DNA of 64,000 nt, from positions 1 to 64,000 of the IMG/VR virus record IMGVR_UViG_3300021426_000070. One strand, 5' to 3'. This DNA is from a virus (taxonomy: Duplodnaviria > Caudoviricetes). This document shows, piece after piece, positions 21,937 to 45,402 of the stretch; within the stretch, counting starts at the first letter, position 1; each line of letters opens with the position of its first letter. Below the pieces are notes generated by a model, which was given only the letters and a program-made list of their open reading frames with translations, had not been told where the DNA came from and ran no database searches. The translations under genes and the position numbers were made by a program.

Positions 21937-23031
21937 TTAACCTGCAACGGCTGTTGAGTCGATTGTGTAAATCTGGTCAACATTGCTCAGAATAGGAACA
22001 ACCATAGCCTGTGAGCTTGTAAACTCACGCAATGGGTCGTTCTGAGAATAGCGAGAGGTCAGAATGAAGTCATCAACGGTCTGATAGACAACACCTGCAA
22101 CGGGGCGGGTAGCCTCTGCGCAGTTAGTCCAAACGAGGTCGCCGAGTTGGTCAGAGCAAGTAAAGGTCATCACACCATTCTGCCATGGAGTGTGATTCTG
22201 TTTCTTGCCGTTGAGCTCAGTCTTAATCTTACGTGCTACACGATGGAGCTTAACACCCCACTTGGTCTGCAGCACCTGACCAGCCTTCTCGAAGTCCAAC
22301 ACGGGGATGTTAGAGCCCGTCTGAGTGGCAATGCCTTGGTTGAAAGCATACTGACCACGTACCTGCTTAGAGCGATACAGAGCGTTCAAGGCTACATCGT
22401 CTGCAAACACATCGGTAATGTTGTTTTGGTCAGCCAAAGCCTTGTCGAAAATCTGCTGAATATCGTCAAGAGGGGTAGAGTTCTCTACATTGCTCCAAAT
22501 GGTAGATGCCTTAAACTTGTTCTCTTCGAGGAAACCAACGTCAATACGTACGCCAGTACCACCCGAACGTGTAGAAACACCAACGCCGCTAGAGAGCTCA
22601 GATAGGAACATATCCTCAATACGCTCGTAGATAGCCTCGATGACACGGGGAACGTCTGCGAAAAGGTTCTGCACTACCTGAGCAGAAGGGGTGTTGGTCG
22701 CAATCATAGCATCCAAATCCTTCATCTGCTTTTCAGTCAGATAGAGTTTCAGACCCAACTTAGGAATAGAGCCCGTAGCTGTCTCGATGCGGTCACGGCT
22801 CTTCAATGGCAGCTCAGAGTCGAGAGATACAACGTCAGCAGCTACACGGGTGTACTCCGCAGTAACAGATGCCCAACGTCCATCAGCCGAATATACGGGG
22901 TTCAAGTGGTCACGATACAGATATGTGAGAGCGTTAGCATTCATACGCTTCTCATTCAGTTTCTCAACAACCTGTCTTACAAGCAGTGGAAACCATTTCT
23001 CAGTGTACTCAAAATAAAGCGATTTTTCCAT
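21937..23031 (-). CDS. Major capsid protein
   Basis: 364 aa, follows scaffold and decoration genes; ADVVSLDSELPLKSR...GSIPKLG pattern of gpE-like capsids. Confidence 0.85.
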   Translation of the reverse strand: MEKSLYFEYTEKWFPLLVRQVVEKLNEKRMNANALTYLYRDHLNPVYSADGRWASVTAEYTRVAADVVSLDSELPLKSRDRIETATGSIPKLGLKLYLTEKQMKDLDAMIATNTPSAQVVQNLFADVPRVIEAIYERIEDMFLSELSSGVGVSTRSGGTGVRIDVGFLEENKFKASTIWSNVENSTPLDDIQQIFDKALADQNNITDVFADDVALNALYRSKQVRGQYAFNQGIATQTGSNIPVLDFEKAGQVLQTKWGVKLHRVARKIKTELNGKKQNHTPWQNGVMTFTCSDQLGDLVWTNCAEATRPVAGVVYQTVDDFILTSRYSQNDPLREFTSSQAMVVPILSNVDQIYTIDSTAVAG

Positions 23032-30115: not shown

Positions 30116-31558
30116 TTATGATTGTGGTGGTTGCTGTGGTTCGGGTGGTTGTGGGTTTGCCCCCTCTTTGGCTGCGTTCTCTGCCGCCAACCTCTCAGCT
30201 TCGGCTAGCTGTATCTTTTCAATTTCTTCCTTCGGTGCATCGGTTAGCGCAAGCATGGTCACTGCCGTTTCAAGAGAAATGACACCTCCGCCATACAGAT
30301 TGACGATACCCGACCAATTCTTTGTAGAGTCATCGGGGAATGGGTCAGAGAACTCAAAGCTGATTTTAAGCTTATCTATCTGTGAAGTCATATCGGGGTG
30401 TATGTTCTTTAGCACCTCTAAGGTAACGTGTAAGTAACGGGTAATCATTTCCTCGTACACCTCCAAGCGGTTAGCACGCTTGATATATCCAAGTATCATA
30501 GCGTTACGCACTGCCACACCCGAAAGAGTGCCCAAGCCCTTCATATTCTCAAACGAGAAGTCGGGTGTGAACGTGTCGAATAGGATAGTGGCATTGAGGT
30601 TCGCTTTCTCATCACGCCTTGTTGACGAGTCTTGTGGCGGCTCGATGTATCGGAACTGAGATTTTTCACTAGGCATCTGTATCAGTCTGCCCGGTTTGTC
30701 AACCTCGGGAAGACTAGCTATGACATCGGCTGTTGCAGCGGCTATCGGGTCTGCGTAATAGTTGTTTGTGTCACCAATCTTAGAATCGAGCTCTTCATCA
30801 CGCTTAATACGCTGTTCCGCTCCGTCCCATGCTTTAGGCTGCATGAAAAGGATAGCGTTAATCTTACCCGTTGGGTTCACAATGCTGTTCACCTCCCAAC
30901 CGAACATACCCTTGCGGCATTCAAAAGTGGCATCAGCGGTAAGTATATCCCAATGGAGCACGTTCTTTCCATTCTCTAAGAGCTTATAGCCATAGGCGAA
31001 AGCTATAAGGTTTCTGTATTGGTCGAATAGGTATTTGATACGATAACCAAGCGAACGTGCTACTACAAAAACGTCTGTTCCAATCGTCTCGTCTGCATTC
31101 CGATGGAAATGTGTTACTAGTGCCGACATTGTTTCAGCACCCGCCAATCGCTTACATTGGCGTATCTTAGCATTGAAGAAAGTGTCTTTGAGATAATCGG
31201 TGAACAGCTTGTAGGCATCGTCATCACCTTCTTCTTTCTTCCATACGATAGGCTCACCGAGTAGAAAGAACAGCTCAACCTCATTGATATAACGCTCACG
31301 TGTACGTGGCAGCTTCTCAGAGATATAAGGACTGCCGCCCTCAATTTGCTTGTTCGGTCTTCTCATCACATCATGAAGAAGTGGGTTATACTCCTTCAAA
31401 GCCTTGTCAATATCAGTGTCCCTTGTGGTCATTAGAGATAACACCTTATCGACCTTGCCGTCTTCCATGAGCTTGAAAATATCCTTCCTCGCACCCGTGG
31501 AGTTTAGTGTGAGATTCTTGAAGAAACTCTCTATGTGATTAATTAACGTAAATTCCAT
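30116..31558 (-). CDS. Portal protein (SPP1 gp6-like)
   Basis: 480 aa; FLLGEPI, DTNNYYADP, LSGVA, ISLETAV patterns. Confidence 0.85.
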   Translation of the reverse strand: MEFTLINHIESFFKNLTLNSTGARKDIFKLMEDGKVDKVLSLMTTRDTDIDKALKEYNPLLHDVMRRPNKQIEGGSPYISEKLPRTRERYINEVELFFLLGEPIVWKKEEGDDDAYKLFTDYLKDTFFNAKIRQCKRLAGAETMSALVTHFHRNADETIGTDVFVVARSLGYRIKYLFDQYRNLIAFAYGYKLLENGKNVLHWDILTADATFECRKGMFGWEVNSIVNPTGKINAILFMQPKAWDGAEQRIKRDEELDSKIGDTNNYYADPIAAATADVIASLPEVDKPGRLIQMPSEKSQFRYIEPPQDSSTRRDEKANLNATILFDTFTPDFSFENMKGLGTLSGVAVRNAMILGYIKRANRLEVYEEMITRYLHVTLEVLKNIHPDMTSQIDKLKISFEFSDPFPDDSTKNWSGIVNLYGGGVISLETAVTMLALTDAPKEEIEKIQLAEAERLAAENAAKEGANPQPPEPQQPPQS

Positions 31559-36471: not shown

Positions 36472-38442
36472 AACTACTCATTTTAATTACAGGTTCAATA
36501 TCATAATTTTCACTAACAAATATTTCAGCACTGTATTCAAGATATCGGCACTGAGTTTTAAATGTTTTTATTTTTTCTTCTATAGTTCTTTTATTTGTTG
36601 CCATAGTTATTTCTTTAATCGTTTTTTAATAACATTAATAAAAATTGAGCCGATGAATATATTGTAAACCATTCCAATCGGCTTGTTATATTTCATAACC
36701 TTGAAGAATGGTTTCCAAACATAATCAAGTATCGTAAAATTCACTATAAACCTTTTAAACTCCATTGGTTTTTCTCAGATTAAATTTTCCAAACAGTATC
36801 TAATAGCAGCGTTACAAGCAAATTCATACTTGTCATAAAGTGGCAGCATTTCTTTTACATATACCCATTCTGAACCCCTAAGTTGCCATGGAGTAAAGGA
36901 ATACTTATCTTTTTGGGGATTGACAGATATAACAATATTGTACTTTTTCCTCAGCCACTTGCAAGCAAGCTGATGAGTTATTGCCCACACACATTCATAA
37001 TCATCTTCTGATTTATGAATACCATTAAGGTTGCAACAAAGAATAGGTTCACTATCCTTATATCGTCTAATATATCCCACCACAAATTTATGTGGGTACA
37101 AGAAAGTTTCGACCTCTTTATAATCAAACCCTTTCTCTTTCAATAGCTTTGCGACCTCGAACGAAATATAATCCTCAGTTATTGTTGCCATAGTTCTTTC
37201 TTTAATTGTTCAATAACGCTTTCTAAATATCCGTTTGCACGTGCATTCATACTAGTTAAGAACAGTTTCTGAAACTCTTCAATCTGCTCAAGCACATAGT
37301 TTGCACCATCTTCAATACCTTGGGAATAAGCAATGCTTTCTTCTCTCGAGAGTTCTACTCTTTTTTCGACCAACTCTTCTGCCTTTTCTTTGATACTCAT
37401 CATACCTTTTCTACTGATAAAGCGAATATTTTATAAAATCTGTCGTAGGGGAAGTCTTTAATCTCGACCTCCTTAACATTATCACTGCGCCCGTATAGGT
37501 TGCCGTTTACAAGCAGCTCAAGCCAATAGTGTTCACCTTTCTTGAACACCCCGAAATCTTTCTTGCAAATCAGCCAATGCGTCAATGCTGTTCTTAACTC
37601 TTTTTCACCCATAGCCTTATTTGTTATATTCTTTAAGTAGATAGCAAACTTGCTCGCAGAAATCAACACCGTCCATTTCACGATTATCTATCGCTTTTTG
37701 TATTTCTTTCAATACATTGTTCGCCTTTTCGTATTTCTTCTTATAATCCATGGTCACAACATTTTTGTTTCATGTAACTTCTCAATCATAGCCACACAAG
37801 CATCAATTGGGTTGCTTGCTGTGTCTCCTATGTGGCAGAAAGTACAATTCTCATTATAAGTGTCGCATCGCCAACCATTATAAGTTTTATGCAATGAAGG
37901 GTTTGGCAGAACACTAATCAACGCTGCAAGCGACCAACAAGGAAGATATATTGCATCTGTTTCTTTATAACTTTCAGCAACAATCTCACTATATCCAAAA
38001 GATGGAGATTTCAACGCATCAGGGTCATCCTTCCAAAAGAACCATTTCGAATCCGCACTATTATACGGTAGTATCTCAGCAAGCTTACGGCTTTGCTCAA
38101 TAGTTGTGTATGTTCTAATTAATGCCATAGTCGTTTTACTTAAAATCAAAACTCACCTTCTTGCGCTTTCTTTGCCGTAATCTCTATGACACGCCAAAAG
38201 AAATCATGGAACGTATATACCTCTTTCTCAGCCTCAGACCATATCTTCGGCTCATCGGCAATATACGATAGCATAGCCACCTTCGACTTGTCAATGCTAT
38301 TGTAGCTGCTGTCCTCATTCCAAAGGATAGCGTCCTTGTCAACGCCAACGAACACATAGTAGTCTTTCGTCAACGCATAAAAAGCTATTTTCAGCCTTTC
38401 GATAAATGATGTTCTCTGTTTCATAATCATAATCAATTTTAG

Positions 38443-38516
<74 letters not shown>

Positions 38517-38569
38517 GTTGCCAACCGCCGTTGGCTTTGTTTAACCAAAAAAATCTCGCAAAATAACAG

Positions 38570-38643
38570 TGATTCCGATGGGGCTCGAACCCATGACCTA
38601 TTGTTTAGGAAACAATTGCTCTATCCTACTGAGCTACAGAACC
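38570..38643 (-). tRNA. tRNA-Arg(CCT)
   Basis: Cloverleaf: GGTTCTG/CGGAATC acceptor, ATTGT-TTCCTAA-ACAAT anticodon arm, GGTTCGAGCCC. Confidence 0.95.
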
Positions 38644-38740
38644 AAGTGCCCACCACCGTGGGCAGAAAAAAATAACCAAAAATAAATAATTAAAAACCAA
38701 ATTACTAAATAGATACCTCACTATCTCAGTGATTTATGAA

Positions 38741-38863
38741 AGAGCCGTCACCCGTTTTATATCGCATATAAGACTACCACGAGGTACTTTCGGGGCGGGA
38801 ATTTGCCCCTATCCTTAAAGCCTCCCAAGGGCAAGTTTACGCTCATGCCTAACTAACGGCTCA
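38741..38863 (-). ncRNA. Candidate ~123-nt structured RNA
   Basis: Terminal pairing GAGCCGT/ACGGCTC; ORF-free; lies between the large RNA and the tRNAs. Confidence 0.4.
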
Positions 38864-38870
38864 TATATAA

Positions 38871-39194
38871 AAGCGGCACTGCACAGACTTGTGAATAAGG
38901 CGAAACGGCTCTTGCAAGTTATCTTCGAGTACCATTCAGTTTACCTTTATGGCGTATTACCAAATGACCTTCTCATTGGAGCTTTAAGCCCAACTACCTA
39001 CATTCTACCTTTATTCGCACTCTCAGACAACCGTCACGCCAAAAGCCCCCTATCATAGAGCAACCCACATAACGGGCGCAACTATCGCTACCGTAAATAC
39101 CATCACCTTGTATCGTCTCAGCGAGCCTAGCCCAATTTGGCACACTGCACACGGATATAGAAGGGCTGCACGGAAATCTGTACTAGTGCCGCTT
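38871..39194 (-). ncRNA. Candidate ~324-nt structured RNA of unknown class
   Basis: About 20-bp closing helix (AAGCGGCACT/AGTGCCGCTT plus GTACAGATTT/AAGTCTGTGC); no ORF; boxA-like GTTCTTTGAAA just upstream. Confidence 0.6.
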
Positions 39195-39899
39195 GTGTCA
39201 ATCTTTCAAAGAACGCTTTTTCTTCTTCTTACCTACGACCTCTGTCCGATACCCCTTTATGTGCCCGTCTCTGTCGTACACGGGGTGCTCGATGAACTCG
39301 TTGTAACTATCAATACCATTCGCATCAACCATACTAGGCTCATGAAACGCATCTGCCGTTTCTACCATCGGGTCGTTGTCGCTCAAGTGCATATCGTCAT
39401 CGTGCCATGATGGAGGCAGCAATGTTTTATTGATACGCTTGTTTGTCGTTTGGGTAAATGTATCTCGTCTCATAGCCCATTCTTGAGTCTTTTTAATTCT
39501 TTCTCTAACTCAGCAATCTTTGCCTTTCTCTTATCAGCCTCTTCTATCTCGTCTTCTAAGATACTCACCTCTTCGTTTGCCATACGCCAGAAACGCCCAA
39601 GCATCTCACCGTACGTCTCATCTTCATCTTTCTCAGCATAAAAGCCGTTATCCTCATAGCCGTGCCATTTCTGCACCAACCGAGTGTAACCTTGCTTCTT
39701 CAACTCACCAAGGAACTTAACCATCCTATCAATGTCACCAAAGAACTGTTCTTCGTCAATTTCTTTGCTGTGTACGGTCTTCTCTCTTACGAACGCAAAT
39801 GGGTTTCTCTTCTCTAAACGCTCAATAGCCATTTCAGCTAGCTCTTGCTCACTGCTGAAATAATCCTCTAAGAGCTTTTTTCTTATCTTCTTATCCATA

Positions 39900-40948: not shown

Positions 40949-41981
40949 ACTTCTACCTTTTCTATTTGTTTTATTGTCAACACAAACAAGCGTGCTGTTG
41001 CGTGCGCTGTACCATCTTTCTTCATTTTGGCTACAAGAGGGCGGAGTGTGTTGTATGTGAATTCATACCCTAAGACTATACCAATATCTTTTGTGCCGAC
41101 AACCCTTACCTTTGTGCCAGTTGGATATGGCGCATAGTTATTGATATATTCTCTTCTGAGTTTCATCAGCTCACCTTTCAGTGCCGATATTGATTTTCTC
41201 GTCTCAGAAATCCTCTGCAATATCTCTTGCTCAGTCATAACATTATCTAGTATAGGTTACTAACGGCTCTTCACTCACACAGATAGGTTGCAGCGGCTTA
41301 TTATAAGTAAGCACGCTAACCCAAATCTTACGCCTAAAAAGGAGCTTTAAGGCTTCTTTCCACGTCAGCCGCCAACACGAAACGACCTCACCATCCTCGA
41401 ACTTACACACGGGCAATGGAATTACACCATCTTGGTCTTTGCCGTAAACGGCATTACAACCACTGAACTCAATTGGCTTCATACTCTTACAAGTCTGTTG
41501 GTGGAACAATACGGAAATGCTTGAAGTCCTCTTTAGTGGCTTCTCTGTAATCAGCAGCGACTACTACCCTATCTATCAGCGTTGGGTCGCCGCCTTTCTC
41601 AACGTCAACAGCCATCACAACCATACCTACATAACCCGTTACCTTGTTAGGCTCATCAACCACATAGCCGAAAAGGTTCTCATTATCTACGATGTATCTC
41701 ATAGTCGCTTGCGTGATACTTAACCCGTCACAGCCTACGGAAAAAATTGGGGAAAGAAAGCGGCAGCTTATCGTCACTGTAGCTACCATCTTTCAAATCC
41801 CCATGTATATTTCTATAGACCGCCACAGTGACAAGACGGCTCACAAATACCTCTGCAAAGATAAGTAGAATAATTGGTTCTGCAAAATATTTTGTGGTTA
41901 TTTTATCATATTTTGCGTTTATTAACTTATAAACACAAAGACACATAATTAATAATAGCCGCTATTGCTAACGGCTATCAT

Positions 41982-42347
41982 TTATGATTTACCTTTTATC
42001 CAAGCATCAAGTCCTCTTGCGCCATAGTTCTTTTCTATACGCTCTTCCAATTCACTCTCGAGCTTGTTTCTACGCTCGTACAAGTCACTTCTGAGGTAGC
42101 CGACCTTAGCATGCTCTTTGTTGACCTTGTTTAGCCTATCGGCAATATCGTTGTACCCGAACGCCTTAGCCATGGTAACACTAGCACCGCCATGGTCATT
42201 GTTATCCGTCTGCCTTTGTGCTCTTGACACCGCACTTCTGAACTTGCGGCTATCCAAATCAACTGTCTGCCTAGGACGCTCGAGTCTCTCAGAGCCTCGT
42301 GAACTTTTTCGTTCACCGCCTCTTGTGATATCTACATACTCACCCAT
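41982..42347 (-). CDS. Basic hypothetical late protein
   Basis: ATG start; directly downstream of GTC-ORF A; followed by a hairpin at about 41955-41979. Confidence 0.6.
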   Translation of the reverse strand: MGEYVDITRGGERKSSRGSERLERPRQTVDLDSRKFRSAVSRAQRQTDNNDHGGASVTMAKAFGYNDIADRLNKVNKEHAKVGYLRSDLYERRNKLESELEERIEKNYGARGLDAWIKGKS

Positions 42348-42923: not shown

Positions 42924-45230
42924 TCAATAAACGCCCAACTCTTGCTTAGTAACCTTCTTCTTCACCAATGGATGCCCTAAGATGTTATGTAAAAAATAAT
43001 ACCGTACACCATCGAGTATGTGATTGTCGTGGTCTTCGGGTACGTTTGTGTAGTTACCGAACTTATCCTTTGCATAGACATAGTTTCGCAACTCATCTTG
43101 TGTATTCAAGGAACGCTTAGTTACATAAATCTCATAGTCAAGCATCTTTGACAAACCAGCCTCAATAGAGCCAGCACCTTTAGCCACGGGGTATATGATA
43201 ATACCGCCTAACGCTATCTCATCTACCAATCGTGGGTCTGCGCTCTCGGAATATACAAAACCATCATCACCTCTGTCCGCCTCTTGTCTAAGCTCACGGA
43301 TAATATCGCCACTTGTCATAGCATTTCGGTAACAGAGCTCGTCAATATACAAGCGGTTATCTATAACACCACACCTTGCGATAGCCGTAACGTCATTTGA
43401 ATATCCAAAGTCGATACATCTTCCTATCTTCTTTGCATAGCTCGGGAACTCATCAACGATACCCCATTTCTTGAACACAGCACCCTCAGCGACATCTGCC
43501 CACTGCCCCATGACGATATGCGCATACCTCTGAGGGTTCTTGACCTTCATATCAAGCACCTCTTTCAAGAACTGCTCGGAAAGGTTATTGATATTATCAA
43601 GGTATGTAGTATGGATATGTAGTACGTTCGGGTGTGTGCTTATCTGTACGGGTACGCCATCGAAATACTCTATCTTATGCGTGTCCTTGATAAACCGCTT
43701 ATACACCCAATGGTTAGAGTCGCATGGGTTCATGATGATGATTACCCTATTCTGCAGTCCTTTGACACGAATAGAGAGCATAATCTTCTCAAACTCTTCT
43801 TCCGACACCCATTCCTCAGCCTCATCGACAACAAACGTTGTGACACCTTGGATAGATTTAAGCTTTGCCGTCTGATTACCGCTTGAAGTGTGTATGCCTC
43901 GGAACATCACACGTGCCTTGGTCATATTGTTCACCACATCGGTCTTGGTCTTTGAGAAATACTCTTCTGTATTATCGACCTCCACCTTCTCCCAAAACTC
44001 GGGAATAACGGAGATAGCTGCCGACACCATGGTAAAACGGGTATATAGTATCTGATGGGCTAATTTCTTCTCGGGGTTATACTCAAAGGTGAGGCGTTCT
44101 ATAAAACGGGAAGTGTTGTACGACTTCCCACTGTTGTGACTAACAGTTCCATCTGCGTGTAAATAGCGTTGATTTCCATCCAAATGAATACCACACCATT
44201 CACCATTACCAACAGATTCAATAGTTAGCTTAGAAACCAACCAATCTGCTCTCTTATGTGGATATACTTTCTTACGTGCTATCTTACACGGAATACGCCA
44301 AACATCACCATTAATAGACAACCGATATACTATACCACAATCCTTTTCATATATCTTTGCTCTTCTTGTTCTTAAAGAAGTCCTAAAACCTAATGTATCA
44401 GCTATCAGCTTTATTTGTCTTGCAATAATCTCTTTCTTCTGTGTTATCTCATAACCATTACGAGACATATTGCCATCTGTATCAAGCAAACCAGCCAATA
44501 GCTCGAGTCGTACCTCTTCACTATTAGCTATATACTCTTGCGGAATATGCTTGTTACCTACAAGATTATAGAAACGCAACTTTTCCATAAAAGGATTATC
44601 GTGACACCCTTTTTTCTTTAAACGTAATGTTTCTGCCTTACCACGTTTACCATTCAATGACAACACCATTCCGTTTCTATCTACATACTCTTGCAGATAA
44701 TCCTTTATCTCTTTGTCGGGTGTTGTTATCTGAGGATATACCGAAGTACCGTCACCTAGCCAAACACCGAGCATATAGGGGTCAATCTTTACGGGCTGTT
44801 CTTTGTAAGGAATAGAGTTTGCCTTATAACCATACCAACGTTCTCTAAAATTCTTACTCTGTTTTAAGAACTCTTGAATATTGATATCTATCTTATCTTC
44901 TTTATTTGGATAGCGACCTTCGGAATATATGCCTCTGCCCTTTCTTATGCTTAATATGTGCCCATCGTTTACATAGTAGTCCTCAGCGTTCGTCTGATGT
45001 ACTCTATACATTTCACTATACCCGTGATAGGTTTTAAGCACGTTCCTTGGTGTGCCGTCATCACCCATCACCTTGTCACCAACCTTGATATCCTTAATCT
45101 GTTTAATGGTCATATCTGCCATTATCACCTCTTGGTCGGGTCGCTCACAGCCTCGTCCCCCCGTTACAAGAATGATGAATTTCTCCTTATCGTTATATAG
45201 CGGATAATATACGCTCTGTGTCTTACTCAT
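42924..45230 (-). CDS. terL: Terminase large subunit (PBSX-type), intein-containing
   Basis: Walker A GGRG|SGKS split by the intein; Walker B FVVDEAEE; MNP; IDFGYSND; DNHILDGVRY. Confidence 0.95.
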   Translation of the reverse strand: MSKTQSVYYPLYNDKEKFIILVTGGRGCERPDQEVIMADMTIKQIKDIKVGDKVMGDDGTPRNVLKTYHGYSEMYRVHQTNAEDYYVNDGHILSIRKGRGIYSEGRYPNKEDKIDINIQEFLKQSKNFRERWYGYKANSIPYKEQPVKIDPYMLGVWLGDGTSVYPQITTPDKEIKDYLQEYVDRNGMVLSLNGKRGKAETLRLKKKGCHDNPFMEKLRFYNLVGNKHIPQEYIANSEEVRLELLAGLLDTDGNMSRNGYEITQKKEIIARQIKLIADTLGFRTSLRTRRAKIYEKDCGIVYRLSINGDVWRIPCKIARKKVYPHKRADWLVSKLTIESVGNGEWCGIHLDGNQRYLHADGTVSHNSGKSYNTSRFIERLTFEYNPEKKLAHQILYTRFTMVSAAISVIPEFWEKVEVDNTEEYFSKTKTDVVNNMTKARVMFRGIHTSSGNQTAKLKSIQGVTTFVVDEAEEWVSEEEFEKIMLSIRVKGLQNRVIIIMNPCDSNHWVYKRFIKDTHKIEYFDGVPVQISTHPNVLHIHTTYLDNINNLSEQFLKEVLDMKVKNPQRYAHIVMGQWADVAEGAVFKKWGIVDEFPSYAKKIGRCIDFGYSNDVTAIARCGVIDNRLYIDELCYRNAMTSGDIIRELRQEADRGDDGFVYSESADPRLVDEIALGGIIIYPVAKGAGSIEAGLSKMLDYEIYVTKRSLNTQDELRNYVYAKDKFGNYTNVPEDHDNHILDGVRYYFLHNILGHPLVKKKVTKQELGVY
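44133..45149 (-). mobile_element. Intein with LAGLIDADG homing endonuclease (339 aa)
   Basis: Starts at Cys (CERPDQEV) and ends SHN before Ser; contains LGVWLGDG and LLAGLLDTDG motifs. Confidence 0.93.
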
Positions 45231-45402
45231 ACTCTTCTCCCGTTTCAATCACATAACCTTGCTTATGGCACTGAGGGCACTCTATATCCCTCAGCTTACA
45301 CCCGATAGGTCGGACGGCTAGCCACCTCTTCAAACAAGATAGGCAGACAACCTCACTGACCTTATGCGGGATATTCTCGTTTATATCCACGATATTGCTC
45401 AT
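45223..45402 (-). CDS. 59-aa zinc-ribbon protein (below ORF-track cut-off)
   Basis: MSNIVDINEN...CLSC...CPQC...; overlaps both neighbouring genes by a few bases. Confidence 0.65.
   Translation of the reverse strand: MSNIVDINENIPHKVSEVVCLSCLKRWLAVRPIGCKLRDIECPQCHKQGYVIETGEEYE

Follow-up and report, generated by a model that had tools for sequence, protein, structure and literature searches.

Families of large non-coding RNAs such as GOLLD and ROOL, of which GOLLD is the longer, are spread over many taxa and show strong covariation. The RNAs RNAC and RNAD of phage T4, which are ~120-140 nt in length, are encoded beside the tRNA genes of T4 and on their strand; Northern blots have detected both RNAs, and they are conserved in T4-like phages. 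RNase III processing stems, in turn, bracket mature RNAs in rRNA and in phage early transcripts. GOLLD and ROOL occur near tRNAs and in prophages, and ROOL, with ~580 nt, was first found in rumen data (PMC5737381); RNAC and RNAD are phage-encoded RNAs whose function is still unknown (PMC9697503).

The locus considered here lies in a stretch of 64,000 nucleotides (the window), which makes up the opening 64 kb of an IMG/VR virus record of 129,359 bp and carries all of its genes on the minus strand. An ORF-free segment (Table 1) sits in a variable block with the terminase on one side and the portal on the other, and the neighbouring genes and both tRNAs share its strand. The stop codon of the upstream 91-aa ORF, which is coupled to a 142-aa ORF by an ATGA overlap, lies 3 nt ahead of the helix that closes the segment, and a pair of tRNA-Arg genes follows 230 nt downstream. 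Relatives of the terminase are found in prophages and metagenome-assembled genomes of Segatella, Prevotella, Bacteroides, Phocaeicola and Parabacteroides, which places the host in the Bacteroidales; the phage appears, from the names of the samples that yielded its contigs, to be of rumen origin. The N-terminal part of the terminase holds an intein with a Hint domain and a LAGLIDADG homing endonuclease.

Large phage RNAs of the GOLLD and ROOL kind had been cited as a parallel in the initial annotation, and their occurrence next to tRNAs is supported by the literature (PMC5737381). The likeness is one of context only, in that the segment is large, free of ORFs and placed near tRNAs in a phage, and in that the phage, like the data in which ROOL was first found, appears to come from the rumen; the segment differs from both families in its length of 324 nt, in matching no covariance model at E<=10 and in being without relatives. 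Compared by description, it shares with T4 RNAC and RNAD the character of a non-coding phage sequence beside tRNA genes, but it is longer (324 nt, or 281 nt in a diverged copy), is confined to one species and is an RNA predicted from sequence. The third likeness is to RNase III stems, since sequences ~300 nt apart could form a ~20-bp stem between mRNA and stable-RNA genes; unlike the stems of rRNA and phage transcripts, this one has no antitermination boxA, and its cleavage is hypothetical. If real, the segment would join RNAC and RNAD, GOLLD and ROOL as a further orphan RNA of phages located next to tRNA genes.

Table 1. Features of the window at and around the ORF-free segment; positions are those of the window, and nt numbers run along the predicted RNA.
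Feature	Position	Strand	Remarks
Major capsid protein	21937-23031		
Portal	30116-31558		
tRNA-Arg(UCU)	38442-38516	-	ARAGORN and Rfam
tRNA-Arg(CCU)	38569-38643	-	ARAGORN and Rfam
TAnnTTTG (-7 box)	38677-38684	-	sole match in 38400-39600; in AT-rich spacer just upstream of the tRNAs
Element 2	38740-38870	-	131-nt insertion/deletion polymorphism
ORF-free segment	38871-39194	-	324 nt; RNA nt 1 = 39194, nt 324 = 38871
3' arm of closing helix	38871-38890	-	RNA nt 305-324; U-rich run next
3' domain	38899-39040	-	nt 155-296; predicted fold; basis of covariance model R1
43-nt block	39050-39092	-	nt 103-145; in window haplotype, deleted in L087
Hairpin	39110-39158	-	nt 37-85; 11-nt loop
5' arm of closing helix	39174-39194	-	RNA nt 1-21; pair probabilities >=0.92
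Upstream 91-aa ORF	39198-39473	-	stop codon TGA at 39198-39200
Large terminase, intein-bearing	42924-45248	-	

The segment had been described as free of open reading frames, and this was borne out. The longest stop-to-stop frame in 39197-38644 on the minus strand measures 62 aa, and reading TAG, TGA or TAA as sense opened no frame in the segment, which rules out a recoded ORF. Translated frames of the segment gave zero matches in Pfam and PHROG. A tblastx comparison with 100 related loci revealed no similarity, and on this ground a pseudogene was ruled out. The diverged copy of the segment, L087, lacks 43 nt, and as this is not a multiple of three, the deletion would cause a frameshift in any frame. 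All of these results speak against a protein gene that is decayed, recoded or read from a non-standard start codon, and we consider such a gene scarcely credible.

Known kinds of RNA were sought with the Rfam 15 covariance models, a check that the initial annotation had proposed, and 38871-39197 matched no family, either at the gathering score or at E<=10 in a search of 1.1 kb. The Rfam matches in 38400-39500 were the two tRNAs and weak tRNA look-alikes only, so that the two tRNAs placed downstream by the annotation proved to be tRNA-Arg(CCU) and tRNA-Arg(UCU) on the same strand. None of the models for GOLLD, ROOL, OLE, HEARO and raiA reached its gathering score. The hallmarks of tmRNA, RNase P RNA and group I introns, which the annotation had failed to recognize in the segment, were likewise not recognized by ARAGORN or by the Rfam models, even at E<=10. 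A retron msr-msd, a DGR template and a group II intron were excluded by the lack of an RVT_1 match in the 129-kb genome, in a search for which control genomes did give matches. The lack of a TROVE (Ro60) match and of an Rfam match argued against a Y RNA or YrlA. A tRNA remnant was rejected, as the only likeness was a D-arm-like 10-20-mer on the opposite strand that extended no further.

Analysis of the segment ends confirmed the reported ~20 bp of helix with G-U pairs that favour the minus strand. Nucleotides 1-10 pair with 315-324 and nt 12-21 with 305-314 (10+10 bp), with A11 as a single bulge and three extra pairs on the inside (24-26:302-304). Two of the pairs are G-U (U13-G313 and U19-G307), and their plus-strand equivalents are A-C mismatches. 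The closing helix has the near-continuous ~20 bp of double-stranded RNA looked for in a processing stem of the RNase III type. We tentatively favour, at somewhat less than even confidence, a reading of the segment as a transcribed spacer private to this lineage, with an end-to-end stem that serves for processing or insulation. In the proposed scheme, the non-coding spacer would be transcribed on the minus strand, downstream of an operon of small ORFs and upstream of the two tRNA-Arg genes, and its ends would pair to give a ~20-bp double-stranded stem of roughly two helical turns. Such a stem would be long enough for a double-strand-specific RNase of the RNase III type and could insulate the mRNA from the tRNA precursor, and a cut at the stem would release an RNA of ~280-320 nt that may be a by-product or a private small RNA. 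We infer all three elements of this scheme, namely transcription, processing at the stem and a role for the released RNA.

The strength of the helix was gauged by scanning every fourth minus-strand position, with each 22-mer set against the sequence 150-450 nt downstream and the best duplex kept. At -30.3 kcal/mol, the closing helix is the top of ~16,000 long-range duplexes on the 64-kb minus strand, a point in favour of the processing-stem reading; its lead over the runners-up (-28.4, -27.8 and -27.6 kcal/mol) is only 1.9 kcal/mol, which counts against that reading. The exact 324 nt fold with an MFE of -111.8 kcal/mol on the minus strand (shuffle z -2.79) compared with -77.4 kcal/mol on the plus strand (z -1.23), which is in favour of that reading. 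The 344 nt delimited by the initial annotation (38871-39214) gave -112.2 kcal/mol (z -1.81), and the 281-nt form of L087 gave -93.4 kcal/mol (z -2.50), the latter again in favour of a processing stem. After correction for base composition, the MFE of the segment ranks 14th among 786 windows of the same length (z -2.27), so that 13 of them fold relatively better, a further point against the processing-stem reading. The folding signal is thus real but modest, and the locus is a cautionary case, as a 20-bp end-to-end helix with z ~-2.8 can be reached by the background of this genome. The strongest-folding 324-nt window of the 64 kb lies in another intergenic region, at 41706-42029 on the minus strand (shuffle z -6.3). 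In it, a 121-aa ORF is followed by a terminator-like hairpin and then by a late -7 box, TATCTTTGCAG, near 41860; next comes a very stable multi-stem leader of ~130 nt (about 41845-41715), which runs into the following ORF.

These background values bear on a rival explanation, that of a non-functional spacer left over from recombination in the hypervariable terminase-portal region, in which the helix and the folding excess arose by chance. A helix that is no outlier and the 14th rank of the MFE speak for this explanation. It accounts less well for the position of the helix, because the best long-range duplex of the 64 kb coincides with a non-coding gap, of which there are few, and begins 3 nt past a stop codon, and because the G-U pairs, together with a C>U change in the diverged copy, all suit the transcribed strand. 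We regard a non-functional spacer as unlikely, although it comes next in probability to the processing stem.

Only two haplotypes of the segment are known, those of the window and of L087, a single 3,088-nt Logan contig. L087 differs from the window by the 43-nt internal deletion, by the loss of element 2 and by 10 substitutions. The closing helix is retained in both, which favours the processing-stem reading; its sole change in L087 is C319>U, which turns G6-C319 into a G-U pair. The tolerance of the interior for a 43-nt deletion and the coming and going of element 2 are in line with a stem that is more important than what it encloses. That the region differs by two large indels in a set of only two haplotypes speaks for a non-functional spacer. 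In the joint structure obtained with RNAalifold, three substitutions fall in pairs, all of which are preserved, and seven are unpaired; none of the 89 predicted pairs carries a compensatory (double) change between the window and L087. The same ten base changes were placed at random positions 300 times, and 21% of these sets reached a joint energy at least as good; therefore, the substitutions are no evidence for the fold. This null result stands against the processing-stem reading and is in keeping with a non-functional spacer.

The haplotypes diverge by 3.6% in the RNA compared with 10.6% at the four-fold sites of four flanking ORFs pooled (Fisher p 0.013), which favours a processing stem and, with the RNA at a third of the pooled rate, counts against a non-functional spacer. 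Set against the processing-stem reading, the RNA is no different in divergence from the four-fold sites of the nearest ORF (1/25), and its difference from the adjacent spacer (8.3%) is not significant (p 0.09). The low divergence may therefore be taken as weak evidence of constraint, confounded by mosaic divergence along the contig. The segment has only two dinucleotide substitutions (38932-38933 and 38959-38960, minus strand), both of which change the GU of a GGUA; the L087 versions of these sites are GAGA and GACA. GGUA occurs seven times in the segment where 1.6 are expected, an excess that is not significant after correction for 256 tetramers, and a sponge based on GGUA or GUGC motifs was rejected for this reason.

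The same comparison is relevant to a functional, trans-acting structured RNA private to this phage, such as a scaffold, a sponge or a ribozyme-like RNA. The closest analogues would be T4 RNAC and RNAD, which likewise lie in a tRNA region. Its position beside tRNAs, as is often the case for GOLLD and ROOL (PMC5737381), would suit such a role, and so would the folding of both forms (z -2.8 and -2.5), the low substitution rate and the hairpin at nt 37-85, which is the most robust internal helix, with p>=0.9 in both haplotypes. Yet the 43-nt internal deletion is tolerated, the helix 173-178:263-268 of the window MFE structure is broken by G263>A in L087, the enrichment of GGUA is lost on correction for multiple testing, and no second member in the collections searched means no covariation. 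We consider a private trans-acting RNA improbable, and the more specific proposal of a stable ~280-320 nt RNA with a modular 43-nt insert, excised at the stem and acting in trans on the translation or the RNA metabolism of the host, would be less probable still.

The initial annotation had suggested a possibly new class of RNA and proposed that homologues be collected. Blastn with the segment against GenBank phages was empty, blastn and nhmmer against 80 terminase-related IMG/VR loci found no segment homologue, and nhmmer with its filters off found nothing in all collected loci. BLAST with the RNA as query gave no homologue in the whole records of 50 related phages, and a covariance model of the 3' domain recovered from those 50 records the phage's own copy alone (E 4e-38). 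No homologue was found by BLAST in 401 genomes of one Bacteroidales family, that of a Prevotella genome which carries a related prophage, and six motif scans, with exact or degenerate patterns, across collections of viruses and genomes yielded no second member. The search also covered homologues of the three flanking proteins and their contigs, which led to no second member either, and a metagenome scan by way of the neighbouring 142-aa protein found no segment homologue. Among 5.8 billion proteins, the 91-aa and 96-aa flanking proteins have near-identical clusters only; the contigs that encode them trace back to a number of samples in ENA, JGI and Logan, and in six of these contigs the RNA region is identical to the window. 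The collection thus amounts to a single species with two haplotypes.

Related phages are arranged differently at this point. The closest available relative, L002, has a terminase that is 88% identical. It is collinear with the window as far as 39465; beyond that position it has different genes and lacks the 91-aa ORF, the spacer and the tRNAs. Behind more distant homologues of the 142-aa protein (62-77% identity) come unrelated genes in place of this spacer. Relatives set tRNA-Arg(CCU) directly behind a 160-aa ORF, again with no such spacer, which counts against the processing-stem reading. The exact stop of L002 synteny at 39465 and the empty searches are both consistent with a non-functional spacer. 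Because the searches were empty and the relatives have their tRNA-Arg(CCU) directly behind the ORF, the segment is, as far as sequence searches can tell, an orphan that occurs in one phage species only, and it does not belong to a conserved class of RNA. The new-class reading is unsupported because no second member was found in the collections searched: there is no homologue outside one phage species, no class and no covariation. For a single-species sequence without covariation, computation cannot open the question of the function of such RNAs. Taken together, the original observation is partly confirmed and its first interpretation partly supported.

Relatives share a conserved module behind the 160-aa ORF, consisting of tRNA-Arg(CCU), a ~155-aa ORF and a second tRNA (G003, G005, G006, G013 and others; loci L132-L141 and L155). 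Unlike this module, the two tRNA-Arg genes of the present phage stand in the variable terminase-portal block. The idea that relatives have an analogous RNA was rejected, as the gaps at their tRNA-Arg loci are ORFs.

Two further claims about the surroundings of the segment did not hold. The motif GTTCTTTGAAA (39204-39214), annotated as boxA-like, is the coding sequence for the last residues of the 91-aa ORF. It departs from the E. coli boxA 12-mer at more than three positions, and boxA-like sites are about as frequent as chance would make them (91, with 81+-9 expected). No boxA consensus was found in an untranslated leader, as would mark an rrn-type antitermination leader. GTTCTTTGAAA is also without the leading TA, unlike the late -7 boxes of this phage, TACCTTTGCAG and TATCTTTGCAG. 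The second structured element that was reported next to the segment (element 2) folds no better than its shuffles (z -0.67) and is wholly absent from L087 (L087 1290-1300). It is hairpin-like and single-copy, no match to it was found elsewhere, and it is flanked by the short direct repeats CGCTTT and GCTCTTT.

The insertion/deletion behaviour of element 2 and its flanking repeats could be read together with the ~20-bp inverted ends of the segment, which enclose ~280 bp without an ORF, as signs of MITE-like non-autonomous mobile DNA, with the helix representing imperfect terminal inverted repeats. We judge this to be very improbable, since there is one copy in the 129-kb genome and none elsewhere in the collections searched, the helix ends show no target-site duplication, no empty site was found and all mismatches are G-U-compatible on one strand.

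To return to the processing stem, it draws support from the lack of any frame, protein-family or pseudogene signal and from the neighbouring genes and tRNAs, which lie on the same strand. On the other side, no recognizable promoter was found ahead of the segment and no canonical terminator behind it. The TAnnTTTG box lies at 38684-38677, between element 2 and the tRNAs, and is not retained in L087; the tRNAs may have their own promoter there, as judged from this motif.

A GC-rich hairpin of 6-7 bp with a GGNG tetraloop is located a few nucleotides upstream of each tRNA-Arg gene (38647-38664 and 38520-38535, minus strand), and these hairpins may be a processing or termination signal. In relatives, too, a tRNA is preceded by a CCCC/GGGG hairpin.
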